Assembly: GCA_965541585.1 (NCBI GenBank)
Contig: CBEUCH010000003.1
Span: 181,516 to 245,515, forward strand
Direction: 5' to 3'
Length of the DNA stretch: 64,000 nt
From: an uncultured bacterium
Lineage (GTDB): Bacteria > Zixibacteria > MSB-5A5 > UBA10806
Part shown: in pieces, positions 570-10,015 of the stretch
Position numbering within the stretch: the stretch's first letter is position 1
Layout: every line of letters starts with the position of its first letter
Position numbers and translations under genes: made by a program
Notes under the pieces: model-generated
Database searches by the model: none
Seen by the model: only the letters and a program-made list of their open reading frames with translations
What the model was told of the DNA's origin: nothing

Positions 570-3290
570 ATGAAAAAGCACTCGAAAGCTGACAGCGGGA
601 TAGAAGGAAAGGCCGGGGCGTCCGAGAAATCCTCGGCGAAACTCCATCAAGCCGAAAAAGAGCTGCAATACCGCCTCGAATTTGCCAAACTGATATCATC
701 AGTTTCCGCAAAGCTCGTCGGTTTCAAGCCCCAACAATTTAAGCGTGTGACCGATTGGGTTTTGAAAAAGATCGGTGAATTCGCGGGGGTGGATAGATGC
801 TATATCGTTTTGTTCTCCGAGGGAAGGGCCAACCCACAGGATATCCACGTTTGGCGCGCAAGCGGCGTAGCAAAGATCCATATAGATGAGCAGGGGTTTT
901 CATTTGACTCGTTTCCGTGGGCTATGGGGAAACTAAAGAAACTCGAGCATATCCGGATTTTGAACAAACAGGATCTTCCCTCAAGCGCAAAAGCCGAGAG
1001 AGATGTATTTGAACGTTTCGGCGTCGATTCACTGCTGGTGATACCGGTCGCCTGTGAGAGCAGACTTATAGGCTGCCTGGGCTTCACCTCGCGACATGAT
1101 AAAAGAATGTGGGACGATGATATCATCGCGCTTTTAAGAATGCTGGGAGAATCGTTTGCCAATGCTTACGAGAGAAAAAAAATTGAAGAAGATCTGAGGG
1201 AAAGCGAGGAAAAATTCAAAAGAATTGTCGAGCGGAATTTCGATATGATATTCACTGCTGATTTACAGGGAAGACTCACGTATGCCTCGCCATCGGTCGA
1301 GAGAGTGCTCGGCTATCACGCGGATGAGATGATTGGAAAACTCACAACGGATTTCGCCTCCGAGATCGAAATCCCCGGGGTTATTCAATCTTTCAAGGAT
1401 ATAGCAAAGGGAAAAGAGGTTGAAGGTCAACAGCTATCGCTTGTTAGAAAGAATGGTACTATTGCACACATTGAGCTTAACAGTTCTCCTATTTACAGGG
1501 ATGGAAAAATCGTCGGGGCTACAGCTATAGGCAGAGATATCACCGAGCGCAAACTGGCTGAGGAAGCTCTGCGCGAAAGCGAGGAGAAATTCCGCAACCT
1601 TGCTGAATATTCTCTTCAAGGGATCATTATCTCGCGAGATGGCAAGAATCTTTACGCTAACAGAAGCCTGGCAGAGATTCTGGAGACTACCGTGGAGGAT
1701 ATACTGGAAACTCCCACGAGAGAATTGTTAAGTAAACTTGTAGATCCTTCCTTTGAGAGTATGGTAACTGCCTTGTTCAAGTCCCGCCAGAAGGGGATCA
1801 GCGTTCCTCCTCGCTACGAAATCAAAATTAGGTCTTGCAAGGGCAGCGAGCGCTGGGTGGAAATTTTCGTGACCAGTATCACGCATAGGGATGAATTGGC
1901 TCAATATGCCGTAATTGTCGACATCACAAAACGCAAGCAAGCACAAGAGGCTCTGCGCGAAAGCGAAGAAAAATACCGTCTGCTGATCGAAAATGCAGGG
2001 GAAGCAATATTTTCGGTGGACTATGACGGTGTTTTTCTGGTGATGAATAAAATGGCGGCGCGATACTTGGACGGAGAACCCGAGGGATTTATTGGCAAAA
2101 CCATGTGGGATATTTTCCCCGAGGGAATCTCAGATAGACAGTTAGACTCGATCAGACAAACGATCAGGTATAATAGGAGCCAGGTAAAAGAGGAAATGAC
2201 CCTGGTCAAAGGAAAAGAAAGATGGTTCAGAACGAGCATACATCCCATTTATGATTCAAACGGCCAGGCGAATGCCGCCCAGCTGATCGCCCATGATATT
2301 ACTAAAGAGCGCCAGATAGATATCCGTAATGCTGCGAGAATGAGACTCCTGGATAATCTCAGGAATGCGAAGGACATCGACCAATGCCTGAAATACGGCT
2401 GTGAAGCTCTTGACGACGCGCGGCTATTCAAGCGGGCCGTTCTTACATTGAACGATCAGGATCGGCGGATTACGCATCTCGGACAGTTCGGACTGGAAGA
2501 CAATCTCGTCTCTGATGCGAAAAACTCTCCCCCTCTTGGAAAAGAAGTCGTTAAGAAAATCGTCCGGGGAAAATACAAAATCAGCCACTCATTTTTTGTT
2601 CCTGTGGAAAATGGTGTAAATCTAGAAAAATCAGGCAGATACATACGGCAGAAGAAACGCAAAGCCAGTGACGATTCGTTTTGGCAGGCGGGAGATGAAC
2701 TCTTTGTACCTATGCTGGGCAATGACGGTAAGTTTGAAGGCTGGCTTTCGGTCGACACACCATTTGATGGAGAAAGACCGTCATCCTATACAGTGAGATT
2801 TCTGGAAGAAGTAGTCGATATCGTCACCCAGCAGATACAGGAAATCCAGAGTCGGGAAAAACTGGATCTGGAACGACAGGCCCTTAAGGAAAAAAACATC
2901 GCTCTTAATGAAGTTCTGGCGTATATCGAAGAAGAGAAAATGGAAATTAAACGGCGGATAACTGAGAGCATTGATAATATCCTTCTCCCGATCCTGAGCA
3001 AGCTTGCAGATGAAAGCAAAGTCATTGATCCAGCATATGTAGATCTTCTTAAGAGTGGTCTTATCGACCTTGCTTCTCCGTCCGGAGGATCTCAGCACGT
3101 CTATTCGAAGCTATCTTCCAGGGAAAAGGAGATCTGTATCATGATAGGGGATTTTGCGACGAATAAGGACATTGCGAAAGCCCTTAAGATCAGGGTAAAT
3201 ACGGTTCGGAAACATCGTGAGGCGATTAGACGTAAACTTGGCCTGACTAACAGGAAGATTAATCTTGCAGCTTATCTGAATAGCGGTTAA
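570..3290 (+). CDS. One-component multi-sensor transcriptional regulator (GAF + 3 PAS/PAC + GAF-like + LuxR-type HTH)
   Basis: Three 'LRESEEK(F/Y)' linkers, each followed by a PAS domain ending in DIT; N-terminal GAF (SLLVIPV..RLIGCLGF); C-terminal LSSREKEI..IAKAL.I..NTVRKHR..IRRKLG LuxR HTH; no HisKA or receiver motif. Confidence 0.85.
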   Translation: MKKHSKADSGIEGKAGASEKSSAKLHQAEKELQYRLEFAKLISSVSAKLVGFKPQQFKRVTDWVLKKIGEFAGVDRCYIVLFSEGRANPQDIHVWRASGVAKIHIDEQGFSFDSFPWAMGKLKKLEHIRILNKQDLPSSAKAERDVFERFGVDSLLVIPVACESRLIGCLGFTSRHDKRMWDDDIIALLRMLGESFANAYERKKIEEDLRESEEKFKRIVERNFDMIFTADLQGRLTYASPSVERVLGYHADEMIGKLTTDFASEIEIPGVIQSFKDIAKGKEVEGQQLSLVRKNGTIAHIELNSSPIYRDGKIVGATAIGRDITERKLAEEALRESEEKFRNLAEYSLQGIIISRDGKNLYANRSLAEILETTVEDILETPTRELLSKLVDPSFESMVTALFKSRQKGISVPPRYEIKIRSCKGSERWVEIFVTSITHRDELAQYAVIVDITKRKQAQEALRESEEKYRLLIENAGEAIFSVDYDGVFLVMNKMAARYLDGEPEGFIGKTMWDIFPEGISDRQLDSIRQTIRYNRSQVKEEMTLVKGKERWFRTSIHPIYDSNGQANAAQLIAHDITKERQIDIRNAARMRLLDNLRNAKDIDQCLKYGCEALDDARLFKRAVLTLNDQDRRITHLGQFGLEDNLVSDAKNSPPLGKEVVKKIVRGKYKISHSFFVPVENGVNLEKSGRYIRQKKRKASDDSFWQAGDELFVPMLGNDGKFEGWLSVDTPFDGERPSSYTVRFLEEVVDIVTQQIQEIQSREKLDLERQALKEKNIALNEVLAYIEEEKMEIKRRITESIDNILLPILSKLADESKVIDPAYVDLLKSGLIDLASPSGGSQHVYSKLSSREKEICIMIGDFATNKDIAKALKIRVNTVRKHREAIRRKLGLTNRKINLAAYLNSG

Positions 3291-3312
3291 TGCGTATATC
3301 TATATACGCATT
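3289..3312. promoter_or_regulatory. Perfect inverted repeat, candidate transcription-factor operator
   Basis: AATGCGTATAT-ct-ATATACGCATT (11-bp arms), about 20 bp upstream of the -35 at 3333. Confidence 0.55.
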
Positions 3313-3332
3313 TATTACGTATTTAATTAGTA

Positions 3333-3360
3333 TTGACAAATAACTGTAAATCCCTATAAT
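3333..3360 (+). promoter_or_regulatory. Sigma70-type promoter, perfect consensus
   Basis: TTGACA (3333-3338), 16-nt spacer, TATAAT (3355-3360). Confidence 0.8.
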
Positions 3361-3366
3361 TGTTTT

Positions 3367-3496
3367 GGGTGAGTTAAAAGATCCTCCTTTACGAGGAAAT
3401 CGGAGAAATCAGGCCCAAAGGGAAGCAATTCCCGGGGGGAAGAAACCGGGCCGTGAGCCGGGTCATCTTTGCTTCGCAGATGACCCGGCATTTTTT
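3367..3496 (+). ncRNA. Candidate ~130-nt structured small RNA (family unassigned)
   Basis: Lies between a consensus promoter and a strong intrinsic terminator; contains the GGGAA-GCAA-TTCCC GNRA hairpin, TCCTC/GAGGA and GGCCC/GGGCC stems; no ORF with an RBS. Confidence 0.55.
3457..3496 (+). terminator. Rho-independent terminator
   Basis: GCCGGGTCATCT-9nt-AGATGACCCGGC (12-bp stem) followed by ATTTTTT. Confidence 0.85.
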
Positions 3497-3598: not shown

Positions 3599-3627
3599 TT
3601 GAATTTAAATCCGATAAGATATATCAT
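3599..3627 (+). promoter_or_regulatory. Putative sigma70 promoter of the antiporter gene
   Basis: TTGAAT-N17-TATCAT, upstream of an AGGAGAGG RBS. Confidence 0.45.
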
Positions 3628-3647: not shown

Positions 3648-5051
3648 GTGCGGCAGATGACAAAAAAAAGGATAATTCTAATAGCGCTCATTTTCATAAT
3701 ACCTATCATGTTGATAACTTCTTCGGGAGCTAATCAAAATGTCAGTATACATGATTCTGCGGATTCTGCTGACGGCCAGTTACAGTCTGCCGAGAGTATA
3801 TCTGAAACTGCTCCGGGCGAGGAGGAGGGCGGGGTTGGCCCGATTTTGTTTTCTCTGATCATAATCCTTCTGGCCGCCAAATTCGGCGGTGACCTGGTCG
3901 AACGAATGAAACAGCCTGCCGTCTTGGGCGAATTGATTTTCGGGATGATCATAGGGAACCTCGCGCTTCTGGGAATACACGTATTCGAGCCTCTCAAGCA
4001 TCATATTACGATAGAAATTCTAGCCGAGATCGGAGTCATCATCTTGCTTTTCGAGGTCGGTCTGGAATCGAGTTTAAAGGAGATGCTCTCTGTAGGACTG
4101 ACGTCATTCTTTGTAGCTTTGATTGGAGTTGTAATTCCTTTTCTGCTGGGTTGGGGCGTTTCGGCCATGTTTTTCCCGGCGGAGTCAATTTTTGTTCACA
4201 TATTTATTGGGGCTACTCTGACCGCAACGTCTGTGGGCATTACGGCCAGAGTCTTGAAAGACATACACAAAATCCGAACGCGGGAAGCAAAGATCGTCCT
4301 CGGTGCGGCAGTCATCGATGATATACTCGGCCTGGTGGTGCTGGCGGTTGTAGTTGGTGTAATCGGAGCTCATAATACCGGCGGAAGCCTGTCGTCGCTG
4401 AGGATTCTCTGGATTGTGGCAAAGGCGTTTTTGTTTATTTTCGGCGCGCTTGTAATTGGCACGCTGCTGGCGCCGCATTTTTTTAGGATGGCCTCGAAAT
4501 TGAGAGCCCAGTCGATACTGATCACGTTTTCCCTGATGTTTTGCTTCGTCTTCGCCCTGGCCGCCGACAGGATGGGTTTGGCGCCCATCGTTGGCGCCTT
4601 TGCAGCCGGAATGATACTTTCAGGCATTAACTTTGAAGACATATTCCTTCATGAGCAAAGAAAACTGGAGGATCTGCTTCAGCCGATTTCAGCATTTCTG
4701 GTGCCGATTTTCTTTGTCTATATGGGGATGAACGTCGATCTGTCTACTTTCGGGAATTATCAGGTGATTTCCTTCGCGTTGGTTCTTACCCTGGCAGCAA
4801 TTATCGGCAAGCAAATATGCTCGCTGGCGGGGATTTTCGAGAAAAAGATCAACTCATGGGTCATCGGGGTCGGAATGATCCCCAGAGGGGAGGTCGGCCT
4901 GATCTTCGCCGGCATAGGCGCCAAACTGTATGTCGACGGCGCCAGGGTGGTCAGCCCGGACATCTATTCGGCTGTTATTATTATGGTTATGATCACAACT
5001 CTGGTGACTCCCCCTATTCTGAAACTATTGTTTGTTGACAAAGCCTCTTAG
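3648..5051 (+). CDS. Cation:proton antiporter, CPA2 (NapA/KefB-like), with N-terminal extension
   Basis: PAVLGELIFG, LLFEVGLES, ATSVGITARVL, GAAVIDD, GMIPRGEV motifs; start may be ATG 3657. Confidence 0.9.
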   Translation: MRQMTKKRIILIALIFIIPIMLITSSGANQNVSIHDSADSADGQLQSAESISETAPGEEEGGVGPILFSLIIILLAAKFGGDLVERMKQPAVLGELIFGMIIGNLALLGIHVFEPLKHHITIEILAEIGVIILLFEVGLESSLKEMLSVGLTSFFVALIGVVIPFLLGWGVSAMFFPAESIFVHIFIGATLTATSVGITARVLKDIHKIRTREAKIVLGAAVIDDILGLVVLAVVVGVIGAHNTGGSLSSLRILWIVAKAFLFIFGALVIGTLLAPHFFRMASKLRAQSILITFSLMFCFVFALAADRMGLAPIVGAFAAGMILSGINFEDIFLHEQRKLEDLLQPISAFLVPIFFVYMGMNVDLSTFGNYQVISFALVLTLAAIIGKQICSLAGIFEKKINSWVIGVGMIPRGEVGLIFAGIGAKLYVDGARVVSPDIYSAVIIMVMITTLVTPPILKLLFVDKAS

Positions 5052-5102: not shown

Positions 5103-6668
5103 ATGCTTTTTGCGACAAAAGTAAAGAGAATCTATCCTTATCTGCATGCTTTTTTGCTTACCGCGGGTTTTCTGTGGTGCTATCTGGGCGGACTGGCATC
5201 CGATCTGAGAGATCTAATTCTCTTCGCTCTATTGACTTATGCCATTCTGATCCTCGTATTTAATTGGCTGCATTCAAGGAAATATTTCAGCGCAGATAGA
5301 CTATATTTTGTGAGCCAGTTTTTTGACGCTGCCATTATCGCAGTGTTGATTCGACATACGGGAGGGCTGGACTCAGAATTTTACCTGGCGTTTTTTCCCG
5401 TAGTCGCCCTGGCATCGATATTTTATAGCGGCTGGCGTTCCCTGGTGGGGGCTTTATGGTATGGCTTTTGTTATCTTCTCGCCATTTACAATACCGAATT
5501 CTGGACGGACGGCTGGCAGATAGGTTTCTTTCGCCTGGCTGCCATCCTGTCTGCAGGTCTCGTTACCAATGCGGTAGCACACTTCATGCGCTCCTCGGAA
5601 AAGAAGCTGCTCAAAACGCTGGATACGCTCAACGAGCGAACCTGGGAGCTGGAATCGTCGCAGCTCCAGCTCTCCAATATCTACGAGACGACGAGGGCGC
5701 TCTCGGGAATCCTGGATATGGACCAGCTGCTCGAGGAGGTCTTGATAGTATCCCAGAGAATCTTCAGATTTCAGAAATGCCAGATCTTCCTTTCCAATAT
5801 AACGGGCGATTGTCTGTATCTTTACGCCACTCTGGAAAATGGGAATCGCCATATATTTGAAGACCCTATTCCTCATGGAAGAGATATAAGTGGTCTTATG
5901 GAGATGCAGGATCAGAGCTCAATGATCAGGCAGCTGAACCGCAAGAATCGCGATAGCGGCTCCAATCAGGTTGATATCCCGTTGCTCTCCCGGGGAAAAG
6001 TACTCGGCATAATGCAGATAAGAACCGAAACGGGGAAAACGCCCTCCGGCCGGGATAGACGCCTGCTGATGATTTTCGCAGGTTCGGCGGCAGTTGCCAT
6101 CGATAATTCTCTATTGCACAAGAAGACCGAGGAGCTTACTATTATAGATGCCTTGACAGAGCTTTACAACTACAGGTACTTCCGCGCCAAACTCACCGAC
6201 GAGCTAAGGAGGGCGGATCGATACCGTCAAAAGCTATCGATTCTGATGCTCGATTTAGATCACTTCAAGGAAGTCAATGATCGATATGGGCATCAGACCG
6301 GAAATCTCATCCTCCGCGAGGTATCCAACATCATAGAACAGTGCGTGCGAGATATCGATGTGGTCGCCCGTTATGGTGGTGAGGAGTTTGTGGTGATTCT
6401 TCCCCAGACACACGAGGAGGATGCTGCTATAATAGCGGAACGAATCAGGGAAACCGTGGAAAAAAATCATTTCCCAAACAGTAATGGCCAGCGTGAAATC
6501 AGGATCACCGTCTCCCTCGGGATTGCCACGTATCCCGAAGGCATTCACAACTTAGATCAGCTTCTTGAGAAAGTAGACAGGGCGCTTTATCAGGCCAAAG
6601 CCGACGGGAGAAATCGGGTGTGCAGGGCGGAAAAAACCAGAAGGCGAACCGCCGATATGAATCAATGA
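5103..6668 (+). CDS. Membrane-bound GAF-GGDEF diguanylate cyclase
   Basis: About 5-6 N-terminal TMs, GAF, DALTELYN, DLDHFK.VND.YGH, RDID I-site (RxxD) and GGEEF active site. Confidence 0.92.
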   Translation: MLFATKVKRIYPYLHAFLLTAGFLWCYLGGLASDLRDLILFALLTYAILILVFNWLHSRKYFSADRLYFVSQFFDAAIIAVLIRHTGGLDSEFYLAFFPVVALASIFYSGWRSLVGALWYGFCYLLAIYNTEFWTDGWQIGFFRLAAILSAGLVTNAVAHFMRSSEKKLLKTLDTLNERTWELESSQLQLSNIYETTRALSGILDMDQLLEEVLIVSQRIFRFQKCQIFLSNITGDCLYLYATLENGNRHIFEDPIPHGRDISGLMEMQDQSSMIRQLNRKNRDSGSNQVDIPLLSRGKVLGIMQIRTETGKTPSGRDRRLLMIFAGSAAVAIDNSLLHKKTEELTIIDALTELYNYRYFRAKLTDELRRADRYRQKLSILMLDLDHFKEVNDRYGHQTGNLILREVSNIIEQCVRDIDVVARYGGEEFVVILPQTHEEDAAIIAERIRETVEKNHFPNSNGQREIRITVSLGIATYPEGIHNLDQLLEKVDRALYQAKADGRNRVCRAEKTRRRTADMNQ

Positions 6669-7648
6669 ATAGCAATTTCAATCCCGGAAAATTCTTCATC
6701 CTTGGTTTTGATGCCGTCAGGCCGGAAGGTGATTTTCTCCATCTGATTGAGAACTACCCCCCGGCGGGTTTTCTCCTCATGCAGCAGAACTACGAAGACC
6801 CGGAGCAATTGAAATCGTTGGTTTCCTATCTGAGATCGATTGTAGACGATGATGTATTGTTCGCGGTCGATCAGGAGCCGGGACGGGTCCAGCGATTCAA
6901 AAAGGGATTTCCGAGGTCGAAACTGCCTTCGGAATATCTGAAAGATAATTCTGTAGATCAATATAGGGTCTGGTGCAGCGGGACGGCTTCGATACTGGCG
7001 GAGGTCGGAATCAACCTGAACCTGGCCCCGGAAATAGATCTTACACCGAAGGCATCTGAATTTTCCGTATTGAACGGCAGATCCTTTGGCGGCGATTCGG
7101 AGAGAGTTACAGGGTTCGCCCGGATCCTGGTGGAGGAGCACAGGGATAAAGGAGTATTAACCTGTGCCAAGCATTTCCCCGGACTGGGGGCGGGAGAGTT
7201 TGATCCCCATGAGAAGATCTCGATCTCCAGGGAACCTCTTCGTCGATTCGAGAATTACCACTGGCATCCGTTCAGGGCCGCCGTCGGCTTTGGCGTGAGC
7301 ATGGTAATGACGACACATCTGTTAGCCCCGTCGCTCGATAACGGAAACTGCGCAACGTATTCGAGGCGGATATTAAGCCATCTGCGCAAAGATATCGGAC
7401 ATACGGGGCCGGTTATCTCCGATGATCTGTATATGAAAGGAGCTGGCGGACAGGATCTCCTCGATCAATCGTCGATAAAATCGATTCAGGCCGGCCATAA
7501 TCTGGTAATCATCTCCCGGGACATTAACCTACAGCGTAAAGCCATTGAAAGAGTATCCTCGCTGGTCGAACAGGATGAGGCTTTTCGCCAGGCAGCGATG
7601 GAAAATGAGAGAATCATCGAAGAGCTTAAGAATGATATTCGATCATAG
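6665..7648 (+). CDS. nagZ: Beta-N-acetylhexosaminidase (GH3, NagZ)
   Basis: AVDQEPGRVQR, RSFG, KHFPGLG...DPH, ISDDLYM; ATGA overlap with the DGC stop. Confidence 0.85.
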   Translation: MNSNFNPGKFFILGFDAVRPEGDFLHLIENYPPAGFLLMQQNYEDPEQLKSLVSYLRSIVDDDVLFAVDQEPGRVQRFKKGFPRSKLPSEYLKDNSVDQYRVWCSGTASILAEVGINLNLAPEIDLTPKASEFSVLNGRSFGGDSERVTGFARILVEEHRDKGVLTCAKHFPGLGAGEFDPHEKISISREPLRRFENYHWHPFRAAVGFGVSMVMTTHLLAPSLDNGNCATYSRRILSHLRKDIGHTGPVISDDLYMKGAGGQDLLDQSSIKSIQAGHNLVIISRDINLQRKAIERVSSLVEQDEAFRQAAMENERIIEELKNDIRS

Positions 7649-8786
7649 GAGCAAGAACGCCCTCAGGGCCCCTTTTCATATAATCGGGCTTAACTCCGGA
7701 ACCAGTGGCGATGGCCTTGATGCCGCGCTGGTGCAATTTCGGCAAGACAAGCCCCCGAAAGTCCTGACCGGCGAAACCTTCAAATATGCGAAAAGTGTCA
7801 GAGAGAATATAATAAATTGCGCTGAGGCTGGCTTTGCCGATGGCCTCAGATGGCTTGAGCTCGATTCCGAACTCGGAAATATTATGGGACGTTACGCAAA
7901 AAGATTCCTGACGCGAGTTAAGAAAGCAGGCATAAGAGCAGATCTTATAGGCTTCCATGGACAGACCATTAGACATCTGCCGTTTGCCTTCAAGTATCCT
8001 CTGACATTGCAGATCGGAGACCCTTCGTACATAGCACAGATCACGGGTTTGCCGGTCGTGGCCGATTTCAGAAGGTCCGATCTGGCTGCCGGCGGTCAGG
8101 GTGCGCCGCTGTCTCCGGTTTTGCATGAACGTCTATTTCGCCACGAGAAAAAATGGAGGGCGGTTGTGAACATTGGCGGTATAGCCAATATTACCGTTCT
8201 TCCTCCGATAAAGTCGCGCCGGTCACCGTTGGCCGGTGACTGTGGTCCCGGCAATATGGCAATAGACCTTGCGATGAAAAGGATATACGGCAAGACATTT
8301 GACAAAGGCGGCCGCGCAGCGCTGTCGGGAGCCCCGCATGCTAAGCTTGTATCACAGATCCTGCGCCGCAAATTCTTCACATTATCGCCTCCCAGATCGA
8401 CGGGTAGAGAGCAGTTCGGGCGTCGATTTGTCGACGAAATTTTTGATAGACTGGGGAAAACCACGGGGCAGGATGTTATCTCTACAATTACTGAGATCAC
8501 CGTCGGAGGGATTGCAGATTTTCTGAACCGCTTTGCGAAAAAAGTCGACGATATATATCTTTGCGGAGGGGGAGCGAAAAACGAGTATATTGTCTCACGC
8601 TTGAGGCAGTTATTTCCGCGAATGCGAATTGAAACAACGGCGGCGTTGGGTTACGATCCGGATTATTTGGAAGCCGTGCTCTGGGCTTATTTAGCCTGTT
8701 GCTTCCTGATAAAGAGACCTATCGATACCTCCGGATTTACCGGCGCGACCAGGCCATACATATCAGGGAGACTATGCTTTTCTTGA
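7632..8786 (+). CDS. anmK: Anhydro-N-acetylmuramic acid kinase
   Basis: GLNSGTSGDGLD, GFHGQT, DFRRSDLAAGGQGAPL, NIGGIANIT, DCGPGN, STGRE, CGGG. Confidence 0.93.
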   Translation: MIFDHRSKNALRAPFHIIGLNSGTSGDGLDAALVQFRQDKPPKVLTGETFKYAKSVRENIINCAEAGFADGLRWLELDSELGNIMGRYAKRFLTRVKKAGIRADLIGFHGQTIRHLPFAFKYPLTLQIGDPSYIAQITGLPVVADFRRSDLAAGGQGAPLSPVLHERLFRHEKKWRAVVNIGGIANITVLPPIKSRRSPLAGDCGPGNMAIDLAMKRIYGKTFDKGGRAALSGAPHAKLVSQILRRKFFTLSPPRSTGREQFGRRFVDEIFDRLGKTTGQDVISTITEITVGGIADFLNRFAKKVDDIYLCGGGAKNEYIVSRLRQLFPRMRIETTAALGYDPDYLEAVLWAYLACCFLIKRPIDTSGFTGATRPYISGRLCFS

Positions 8787-10015
8787 GATTCATATCAGCC
8801 ATTTTGTTCCTTTGCTCGGTGGCTTTTGGATTTTCCGCCAGGAAACCCGAGATTCCTCCTCTGGCAGAATTTGAAAAAGAAATCCCGGTTCAATTATACG
8901 AGGGCCTCAGCGTGCGGATCGAAGTTCAGGGATCTGTGGCTCTGGAATGTTATCGAGGCGTGAAACTATCCGAGGTCTATTATTTTTCGTCGGATATCAA
9001 TCTGGGGCACAAAGAAAACGGCATAGAGGTCTTTGATCATAACGGACAATTAACCTCCGGGCTGACCGAAGTTAGATGTAAACCGCGGAATAAATCAACC
9101 TCTCTGGGATTCAACGGAAAGGCCTATCGAGGCCATCTGCGTGGAGTGTTCAGCGACAGGCCGGAGGGGATTATCCTCCTCAACATGGTCGATATTGAGG
9201 ATTATCTGATGGGTGTTCTCCCCGGAGAGATCGGGGATCGGACCGAGGAGGAATTCGAGGCCGCTAAGGCGCAGGCGGTGGCAGCACGCACATATGCAGT
9301 GTGGAAATTGACCAACGATGGAACCAGCGGCACGCTTTTTCCTACAATTGCCGATCAATTATACTTGGGGAAAGACTCGGAGATGGAGCTTCTTTCCAAA
9401 GCTGTCCTGGAAACCGGGGGAGAGATCATGACCTATGATAACCAGCCCATAGCGGCGTACTACCACGCAGTCTGCGGTGGTCGCACATCGGCTATCGAGG
9501 ATATCTGGCCGGGAAGAGGGAAATCGGTATATCTCGTCGGCACGGATGACGATGACTATTGCGCCTGGGCTAAAACCTATTCATGGGCCGAGACCTTTGA
9601 TGATTCAACCCTGCTGGAAAACCTGAACGCCTACTTCGCCGGTCGGTCGGGCCAGGAGGCTGCTAATCTCAAAGAACTTATGGATATCGAGTTTTCTACT
9701 GATGGATCGTCGGAACGAGTGGTGGAGATGAAGATCTTCACTGAAAATGAAGTATTGGTTGTGGGAAAAGACCAGATCCGATGGGCCCTGGGAAGACCGT
9801 CTTCACCCGGGACGATCTTGCCGTCCACAAGATTCAAAGCCGTGAAGAGTCGTGACGGCAATGGTCTTTTACAGCTTGCCATAACGGGAACCGGCAACGG
9901 CCATGGTGTTGGTGCCTGTCAGTGCGGTGTTATCGGCAGGGCACGGGCCGGTCAGAAATACGATCGGATTCTCAAAGCCTACTATAAGCATATAGAAATC
10001 GAGAAGATCTATTAA
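8774..10015 (+). CDS. SpoIID/LytB-domain protein (secreted lytic transglycosylase-like)
   Basis: Signal peptide; EDYLMGVLPGE, AAKAQAVAARTYA, GNGHGVGACQ..A, ILKAYY. Confidence 0.9.
   Translation: MLFLRFISAILFLCSVAFGFSARKPEIPPLAEFEKEIPVQLYEGLSVRIEVQGSVALECYRGVKLSEVYYFSSDINLGHKENGIEVFDHNGQLTSGLTEVRCKPRNKSTSLGFNGKAYRGHLRGVFSDRPEGIILLNMVDIEDYLMGVLPGEIGDRTEEEFEAAKAQAVAARTYAVWKLTNDGTSGTLFPTIADQLYLGKDSEMELLSKAVLETGGEIMTYDNQPIAAYYHAVCGGRTSAIEDIWPGRGKSVYLVGTDDDDYCAWAKTYSWAETFDDSTLLENLNAYFAGRSGQEAANLKELMDIEFSTDGSSERVVEMKIFTENEVLVVGKDQIRWALGRPSSPGTILPSTRFKAVKSRDGNGLLQLAITGTGNGHGVGACQCGVIGRARAGQKYDRILKAYYKHIEIEKIY

Follow-up and report, generated by a model that had tools for sequence, protein, structure and literature searches.

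The window analysed here is a stretch of 64,000 nucleotides from an uncultured member of the Zixibacteria (contig CBEUCH010000003.1, positions 181,516 to 245,515, forward strand; its genome is called G000 below). Near its beginning lies a gene for a GAF/PAS-LuxR regulator, followed directly by an operator-like sequence, a promoter and a predicted small RNA (sRNA), which we propose acts on an mRNA encoded on another contig. In window coordinates the features are:

570 to 3290, + strand: one-component regulator gene with GAF, three PAS and a C-terminal GerE/LuxR helix-turn-helix (HTH); recognition helix TVRKHRE
3289 to 3312, no strand: inverted repeat with 11-bp arms and a 2-nt spacer; box 1 TGCGTA (3291-3296), box 2 TACGCA (3305-3310)
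3316 to 3332, + strand: operator boxes 3 (TACGTA, 3316-3321) and 4 (TTAGTA, 3327-3332), with an 11-bp period, abutting the -35 hexamer
3333 to 3360, + strand: sigma-70-type promoter, TTGACA-N16-TATAAT
3367 to 3496, + strand: predicted sRNA of ~130 nt, its start placed from the -10 position
3412 to 3452, + strand: P1 stem, GGCCC (3412-3416) with GGGCC (3448-3452); three sequence solutions among orthologs
3420 to 3433, + strand: P2 hairpin, GGGAA-GCAA-TTCCC; stem conserved, loop not; AGGA/TCCT double change in genome G011
3429 to 3450, + strand: putative target-pairing core, a G6 run (3434-3439) and flanks, complementary to a site on contig C7 of G000
3457 to 3496, + strand: intrinsic terminator, 12-bp stem (3457-3468/3478-3489), 9-nt loop and T6 (3491-3496)
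3599 to 3627, + strand: candidate for a separate antiporter promoter, TTGAAT-17-TATCAT, 9/12 match
3657 to 5051, + strand: CPA2-type cation/proton antiporter gene, a syntenic neighbour linked to the sRNA system by position only

The open reading frame (ORF) at 570-3290 encodes 906 amino acids, and its Pfam matches (GAF, three PAS and GerE/LuxR) bear out the identity that an earlier note, made from the sequence alone, had given to the gene ending at the palindrome. A further GAF-like region was judged by eye, and no receiver domain was among the Pfam matches. The C-terminal LuxR family was found in 202/285 genomes of the phylum, and G000 encodes three paralogous LuxR proteins. One of these, a PAS-LuxR protein with a KHRQ helix (L034, G000:C21:38313, - strand), is followed by an operator of identical spacing with TACCCA boxes, predicted to give rise to a very short RNA hairpin that likewise contains a G6 run. 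No operator follows the third (on contig C4, beside groES/groEL).

The earlier note had read the sequence at the regulator's stop codon as an operator in the form of a perfect 24-bp palindrome, followed by a consensus promoter. The promoter matches the consensus at 12/12 positions. The palindrome is also present, centred at about -66 from the predicted start, but it is perfect at 22/24 positions only, the 2-nt spacer being non-palindromic, and it makes up just the first half of an operator of four 6-bp boxes (consensus TACGCA) with spacings of 8, 5, 5 and 0 bp ahead of TTGAC. The palindrome and the -35 recur in G000 itself and in its relatives, as seen by BLAST; in homologs TTGAC/TTGC is kept while the -10 is often weaker. 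In a first set of 155 distinct luxR 3' ends, where the operator was sought within 600 nt after the stop, it scored at least 15 in 97/155 cases, compared to 0/145 coding and 0/155 shuffled controls. The set was then enlarged to 205 luxR loci (60 further relatives and two paralog loci added), and the operator was found in 116 of these, 34 of which have it at precisely the distance from the stop seen for the 3289-3332 operator. Conservation beside homologous regulators, which the earlier note had named as a check, was thereby confirmed. A fixed operator pattern gave 30 matches in 10/14 genomes of the family and its reversed control none. On the other side, the operator matrix was iterated on the same loci that it scores.

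Four operator-promoters in G000 lie away from any luxR gene: C19:48378(-), ahead of an unannotated protein of ~375 aa; C2:123917(+), ahead of a Por_Secre_tail sorting-domain protein; C4:74286(+), ahead of an Amidase_3 protein; and C1:424234(-), ahead of a subtilase. Together these would be a small regulon whose products are likely exported or part of the envelope. Some luxR-adjacent operators (L116, L250 and L267; L133, L134, L136, L229 and L259) drive ECF sigma factors or HTH_11/DeoR-type regulators and not RNAs, L116 and L134 being called by Pfam and the remaining loci by resemblance.

Binding of the regulator to this operator is predicted from a comparison of recognition helices with boxes. 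The helix was readable in 109 of the 116 operator loci, and the other 7 were left aside. In 103/105 loci a Glu after HR in the helix is accompanied by G as the fourth base of box 2 (TACG), and a non-Glu helix (Gln, Gln, Arg, Asn) by C (TACC) in 4/4, which needs three changes on the tree. Glu is a residue that reads cytosine and Arg one that reads guanine. The loci of two more non-Glu proteins (L239 and L240) fall short of the cut-off score and have their boxes (TGACCA or TACTCA) spaced in the usual way, and in both box 1 mirrors box 2; two further non-Glu proteins are without operator. Several points weigh against this correlation: the non-Glu cases are few, with at least two of the change events forced by strong branches, the near-identical proteins L145 and L192 combine a Glu helix with a TACC box, and with three LuxR paralogs in G000 the pairing of one given paralog with the 3289-3332 operator is indirect. 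The covariation of helix and operator nevertheless supports the predicted binding of the regulator to the sRNA promoter, and the variants would represent natural orthogonal activator/promoter pairs.

The RNA predicted downstream of the promoter folds better than expected (z -2.6, with 2/200 shuffles as good), and its minimum free energy (MFE) fold holds both P1 and P2. The closing stem and the 12-bp terminator named in the earlier note are thus recovered, as is its GGGAA-GCAA-UUCCC hairpin, but the GNRA loop of the latter is not conserved: among 11 orthologous RNAs (nine genomes and two metagenome contigs) the loops are GCAA (twice), CAA, TACT, AACT (twice), TCA, GTGT, TTAT, TTCG and TTCAT. 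What the 11 have in common is P2, a run of six to eight Gs followed by AA, P1 and the terminator. The two strands of P1 fit each other within a lineage (mean duplex energy -10.3 kcal/mol) better than across lineages (-6.2 kcal/mol, 1/62 cross pairs being equally good), and 8/13 terminator pairs show double changes in the RNAalifold alignment. The G run at 3434-3439 is a conserved feature that the earlier note had not mentioned. At a distance of 30-150 nt past the -35, runs of at least five Gs occur in 53/115 operator loci and runs of at least five Cs in 3/115 (expected 16.2), compared to 12/84 and 8/84 in loci without operator. Concurrently, GGGGG is 5-fold over expectation across 96 loci (97 vs. 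18.9).

P1 and P2 were parsed by script, as the MAFFT/RNAalifold consensus did not recover either of them. A picture in which the G run is free is weakened by the folds, which are split on this point: in G003 and G007 the G run is the main pairing partner of the CCC tract, and RNAalifold favours a hairpin between the two. The terminator of G001 also is without a U tract. A conserved small ORF within the RNA was rejected by eye since the reading frames differ among orthologs, and a CAGG..AGCA look-alike of the SRP 4.5S RNA was set aside, as the true SRP RNA (RF00169) is at C1:26473. Rfam gave nothing for the RNA stretch, for the 64-kb window or for six related loci; the best match (E 0.023, far under the gathering score) covers the AT-rich operator and not the RNA, which agrees with the earlier description of the RNA as undescribed. 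A covariance model of the RNA family (R1) was searched in 81 genomes and gave strong matches in only 9, of which 8 were training genomes and one (G010) was new; six weaker matches in other families or in coding DNA looked like chance on inspection. We found no relevant paper on Zixibacteria small RNAs, LuxR or RNA motifs in the literature, supplements of RNA-motif screens being outside the scope of that search.

The next long ORF is convergent at 35 of the 116 operator loci, co-directional at 34 and uncalled at 47, and the convergent cases mean that many such promoters can make only short RNAs. This bears on whether the segment could be a 5' leader, a riboswitch or attenuator, of the antiporter gene. 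The antiporter does lie downstream on the same strand in 9/11 orthologous loci, and the CCC tract has two alternative pairings. The antiporter's own promoter at 3599, a candidate already in the earlier note, is however conserved in that its TATCAT -10 recurs in 7/11 orthologous loci, the sister modules face convergent genes, the Rfam riboswitch search of the stretch, the window and the six related loci was negative, and the RNA co-varies in complementarity with a distant site (see below). We therefore regard a leader as very doubtful. A stand-alone sRNA driven by a one-component PAS-LuxR protein, as first suggested in the note, is supported by the conservation of operator and RNA beside the regulators, by the helix-operator covariation and by the 35/116 convergent neighbours. 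Judged from conservation, the regulator-operator-sRNA module is real and conserved, and the RNA itself is likely produced.

At least four other short-RNA sequence families follow luxR operators, each with a run of five to eight Gs, sometimes in a hairpin loop (L037, L045, L051, L080 and L149; L094, L104 and L111; L059, L062, L063 and L167; L117, L127, L177 and L280). One more locus (L296, G006:C104:11317-11425, - strand) combines boxes resembling the operator with TTGAC-17-TATAAT and a short terminator-bearing RNA that has a G run, all away from any luxR; it lies after an ABC ATPase gene, and the HTH gene described below as target was not found in G006.

GacA/UvrY are LuxR-family HTH regulators of RsmY, RsmZ and CsrB, short self-terminating RNAs preceded by an upstream palindrome. 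The present locus shares all three traits, a LuxR-family HTH, an upstream palindrome and a short self-terminating RNA, and the earlier note had accordingly drawn the analogy to a CsrA/RsmA-titrating decoy. The csrA gene was found, as that note had proposed to check, in a flgK-csrA-flgL cluster of G000. Since it is near-universal in the phylum (270/285 genomes), its absence could not decide the question. The four GGA motifs that had suggested titration are indeed in the RNA, but only two of them are predicted to be unpaired (0.72 and 0.86; the others 0.15 and 0.02), GGA is only 1.2-fold over expectation across the 96 loci (271 vs. 222.5), and no GGA hairpin loop is conserved among orthologs, in contrast to the repeated GGA loops of GacA/UvrY systems, from which the locus also differs by having no receiver domain found in its regulator. 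The csrA of G000 is moreover flagellar, with fliW ~2 kb downstream (L002/L036, G000:C3:57842-63626), and presumably of the protein-antagonised type; the flagellin leader carries A-rich AGGA motifs unlike the G run. The RNA had no match among Rfam CsrB/CsrC/RsmX/Y/Z, and a decoy leaves the covariation with the target unexplained. The analogy is therefore not borne out, and we give a CsrA/RsmA decoy hardly any credence.

The target candidate was first met as a weak match of the covariance model (E 4e-4) and as a 16-mer BLAST match (E 0.65): positions 3429-3444 of the RNA are perfectly complementary (16 nt) to G000:C7:113287-113302, with four more pairs past an internal loop. Read on the coding strand, the site is a C-run located 59 nt past the stop codon of an HTH gene, which lies between glmS and a glycosyltransferase gene in an operon for cell-envelope sugars that the RNA likely controls. 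Besides an N-terminal HTH, the HTH protein contains three tandem repeats of Myb-repeat type; its resemblance to T5 D5-like and Myb-like regulators, and to Myb/sigma-r4/GcrA-like clusters in the ESM Atlas (0.90-0.91, recognition below threshold), can serve as leads only. The C-run is mostly unpaired by fold prediction, pyrimidine-rich and untranslated. A 17-nt block at the site is invariant in G000, G001 and G002.

It was predicted in advance of the following comparison that the site would vary in step with the RNA of each genome. The HTH gene was compared in 18 of the 24 genomes of the order, and glmS precedes it in 17/18 loci (the contig of G003 starts within the gene). A run of at least six Cs 13-59 nt after the HTH stop is present in 10/18 genomes, namely in all nine that bear the RNA and in G002, where a contig end interrupts the luxR ortholog; G004 and seven sister-family genomes (8/18) have neither an RNA match nor the C-run site. 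The flanks of the site follow the RNA: AAGAA in the home genus, AATGT in G003, AATGC together with a CCT change in G011, and AATAC in G013, G005 and G008. Within a genome the longest perfect complement is 11-21 nt (21 in G011), as compared to at most 12 across genera. By computed duplex energy the own-genus RNA binds best for 9/9 sites, and the true pairing of the five genera is the best of 120, both by duplex and by net energy. The lengths of G-run and C-run are equal in 7/9 own pairs vs. 22/62 cross pairs, and flank pairs average 2.9/4 vs. 1.1/4. Of the 5,623 gene-end windows in G000 this site comes out on top, and net energy likewise places it ahead of all other non-coding sense C-runs (184 in total).

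A number of results weaken this picture. The own-genus site is best for only 6/9 RNAs by duplex energy, the 3'-flank match is poor in G007 (1/4) and G010 (2/4), and G005 and G008 have G8 facing C6. The margin of the first rank among the 184 C-runs is just 0.6 kcal/mol, the site is outside the top 8 of all 776 runs of at least six Cs on both strands, and the nine RNA-bearing genomes, being five genera of one family, are not independent samples. On balance, the co-occurrence and covariation of RNA core and C-run site point to trans base-pairing on a specific mRNA site rather than to CsrA titration. It is unusual for a predicted target to be backed by base-by-base co-evolution with its sRNA over five genera. 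In the sister family (L351, L353, L354, L358 and L360) a cobalamin riboswitch look-alike, judged by eye, stands after the HTH gene and replaces the C-run and glycosyltransferase. Two more non-coding C-runs followed by GGG (G000:C6:135848(-) and C24:25077(-)) could be secondary targets of the RNA.

The same complementarity could arise if both stretches were DNA sites bound by a single protein, such as the Myb-repeat HTH protein, or if the RNA paired with DNA in an R-loop. The partner gene does encode a likely DNA-binding protein, both stretches lie upstream of a gene, and G-rich RNA forms stable R-loops. But the nucleotides in question also co-vary with intramolecular RNA stems, the matching continues past bulges, the run length varies from 6 to 8, the distances to neighbouring genes are not fixed, and the strands are those that fit sRNA-mRNA pairing. 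We consider this very unlikely. Also quite unlikely is a RosA-like sponge role for the RNA, with the C-run being part of a C-rich sRNA released from the 3' end of the HTH gene. RosA and RsaI do bind C-rich sRNAs through G-rich regions (PMC8216469), and the C-run here is exposed; on the other hand it has no terminator and no conserved structure of its own, no conserved sequence surrounds it beyond the pairing region, and the C7 site is not among the 2/110 non-coding runs of at least six Cs in G000 that precede a terminator.

We thus propose, with a probability of roughly 0.68, that the sensor binds the operator and activates a stand-alone sRNA that pairs at the C-run in the glmS-HTH-glycosyltransferase mRNA, with cutting of the duplex by RNase III as the favoured outcome. 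A signal would reach the GAF/PAS domains, upon which the LuxR protein would load the four-box operator after its own stop codon, from the dyad to -36, and activate synthesis of the ~130-nt RNA. That binding activates rather than represses seems quite probable, because the boxes end at -36 and leave the region from -35 to -10 free. The unpaired G run would nucleate on the C-run exposed after the stop of the HTH gene, P2 and then P1 would be invaded to give a duplex of 11-21 bp without Hfq, and RNase III would cut this duplex and thereby uncouple the glmS-HTH-glycosyltransferase mRNA.

Least certain of all is what the pairing leads to. G000, a genome 98% complete, encodes both RNase III and Rho, and no Hfq was found in it. 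Cleavage by RNase III, which we put at slightly below an even chance, is favoured over masking of a Rho loading site, a more tentative option, because the enzyme is present, the duplex is long and there is little skew of C over G outside the run. Some further outcome is rather improbable, and release of an icaR-like anti-RBS (ribosome binding site) element is unlikely: when the C-run was paired with the RBS of the HTH gene itself, the register was not consistent (-8 to -24 kcal/mol, 9 genomes). The 3' end of the 16S rRNA was not found in the G000 assembly.

A complete reading built on Rho keeps the same pairing site but takes the C-run as a Rho loading site, so that pairing would allow read-through into the glycosyltransferase genes. 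The site is untranslated, mostly unpaired and pyrimidine-rich just after a stop, no terminator hairpin was seen there, Rho is encoded, and there is no consistent promoter between the site and the glycosyltransferase (at least 9/12 in 4/10). There is also a precedent in the cfa leader, where access to rut is modulated by sRNAs (PMC12691595). With the run removed, however, the 100 nt after the stop show no more C than G in 6/10 site-bearing genomes, which is weak for a rut site, and perfect pairing of up to 21 bp exceeds what masking needs. We hold this reading to be doubtful as a whole.

The proposed chain from sensor to mRNA can be compared with several known systems. In Vibrio cholerae, VqmA is a cytoplasmic one-component activator with PAS and HTH domains that acts on the gene of the base-pairing sRNA VqmR (10.1101/2021.04.15.439952; 10.1101/2019.12.19.881847). 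The present module likewise has a PAS sensor fused to an HTH (LuxR-type here) in one component, an sRNA gene, and a promoter choice that appears to be set by HTH residues. Unlike VqmA-VqmR it has a GAF and several PAS domains, a four-box operator immediately behind the regulator gene's stop codon, more than one paralogous cassette in a genome, a G-run seed and no Hfq found, and the likeness described here is one of layout; Rfam VqmR did not match the RNA, and VqmA was not among the PDB matches of the regulator's HTH. For the operator, UhpA at uhpT provides an extended operator of the NarL/LuxR family. LiaR also has one, with a primary dyad and then secondary sites toward -35 (PMC4482077), an arrangement shared here, although the box sequence differs and our protein is one-component.

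Regarding the target, RsaI pairs in trans with the icaR 3'UTR (untranslated region) of Staphylococcus aureus, downstream of the coding sequence of a transcription factor in an exopolysaccharide circuit (PMC7821165), and Spot 42 and SdsR pair in trans with the hilD 3'UTR of Salmonella, which needs Hfq and RNase E (10.1101/2022.09.07.507058). The predicted pairing resembles these in having a trans-encoded sRNA and a site downstream of a transcription-factor gene, and differs by its short intercistronic C-run, 11-21 perfect pairs and visible co-evolution. The sponges RosA (Bacillus subtilis) and RsaI have in common with our RNA that it would stand alone, present single-stranded G-rich regions and meet a C-rich partner (PMC8216469), while the partner here lies in an mRNA intercistronic region and not in a known sRNA. 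By analogy, the module would work like VqmA-VqmR upstream, like RsaI or Spot 42/SdsR downstream and with a RosA-like seed, and is a member of none of these. Only a few trans-acting sRNAs have been described whose pairing site is downstream of a stop codon, and the chain proposed here, from sensor and operator code to sRNA and target, would be complete and testable for an uncultured phylum.

Possibly, this is one example of a phylum-wide, repeatedly duplicated sensor-operator-sRNA cassette, with the operator at the stop, helix and operator co-tuned, a Hfq-independent G-run seed for post-stop C-runs whose flanks serve as the address, and intercistronic cutting or read-through instead of RBS control. 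We searched for partner sites of the other G-run RNA families with 11-12-mer patterns (5, 3, 4, 3 and 7 genomes), and the matches were only the RNAs themselves or unrelated positions. Consequently the target is supported for the family of the 3367-3496 RNA only, and the phylum-wide reading stays a tentative conjecture. Downstream of the antiporter, the window at 5103-10015 carries a gene for a membrane protein with a GGDEF domain and, after it, a peptidoglycan-recycling cluster of nagZ-like, anmK and SpoIID genes.

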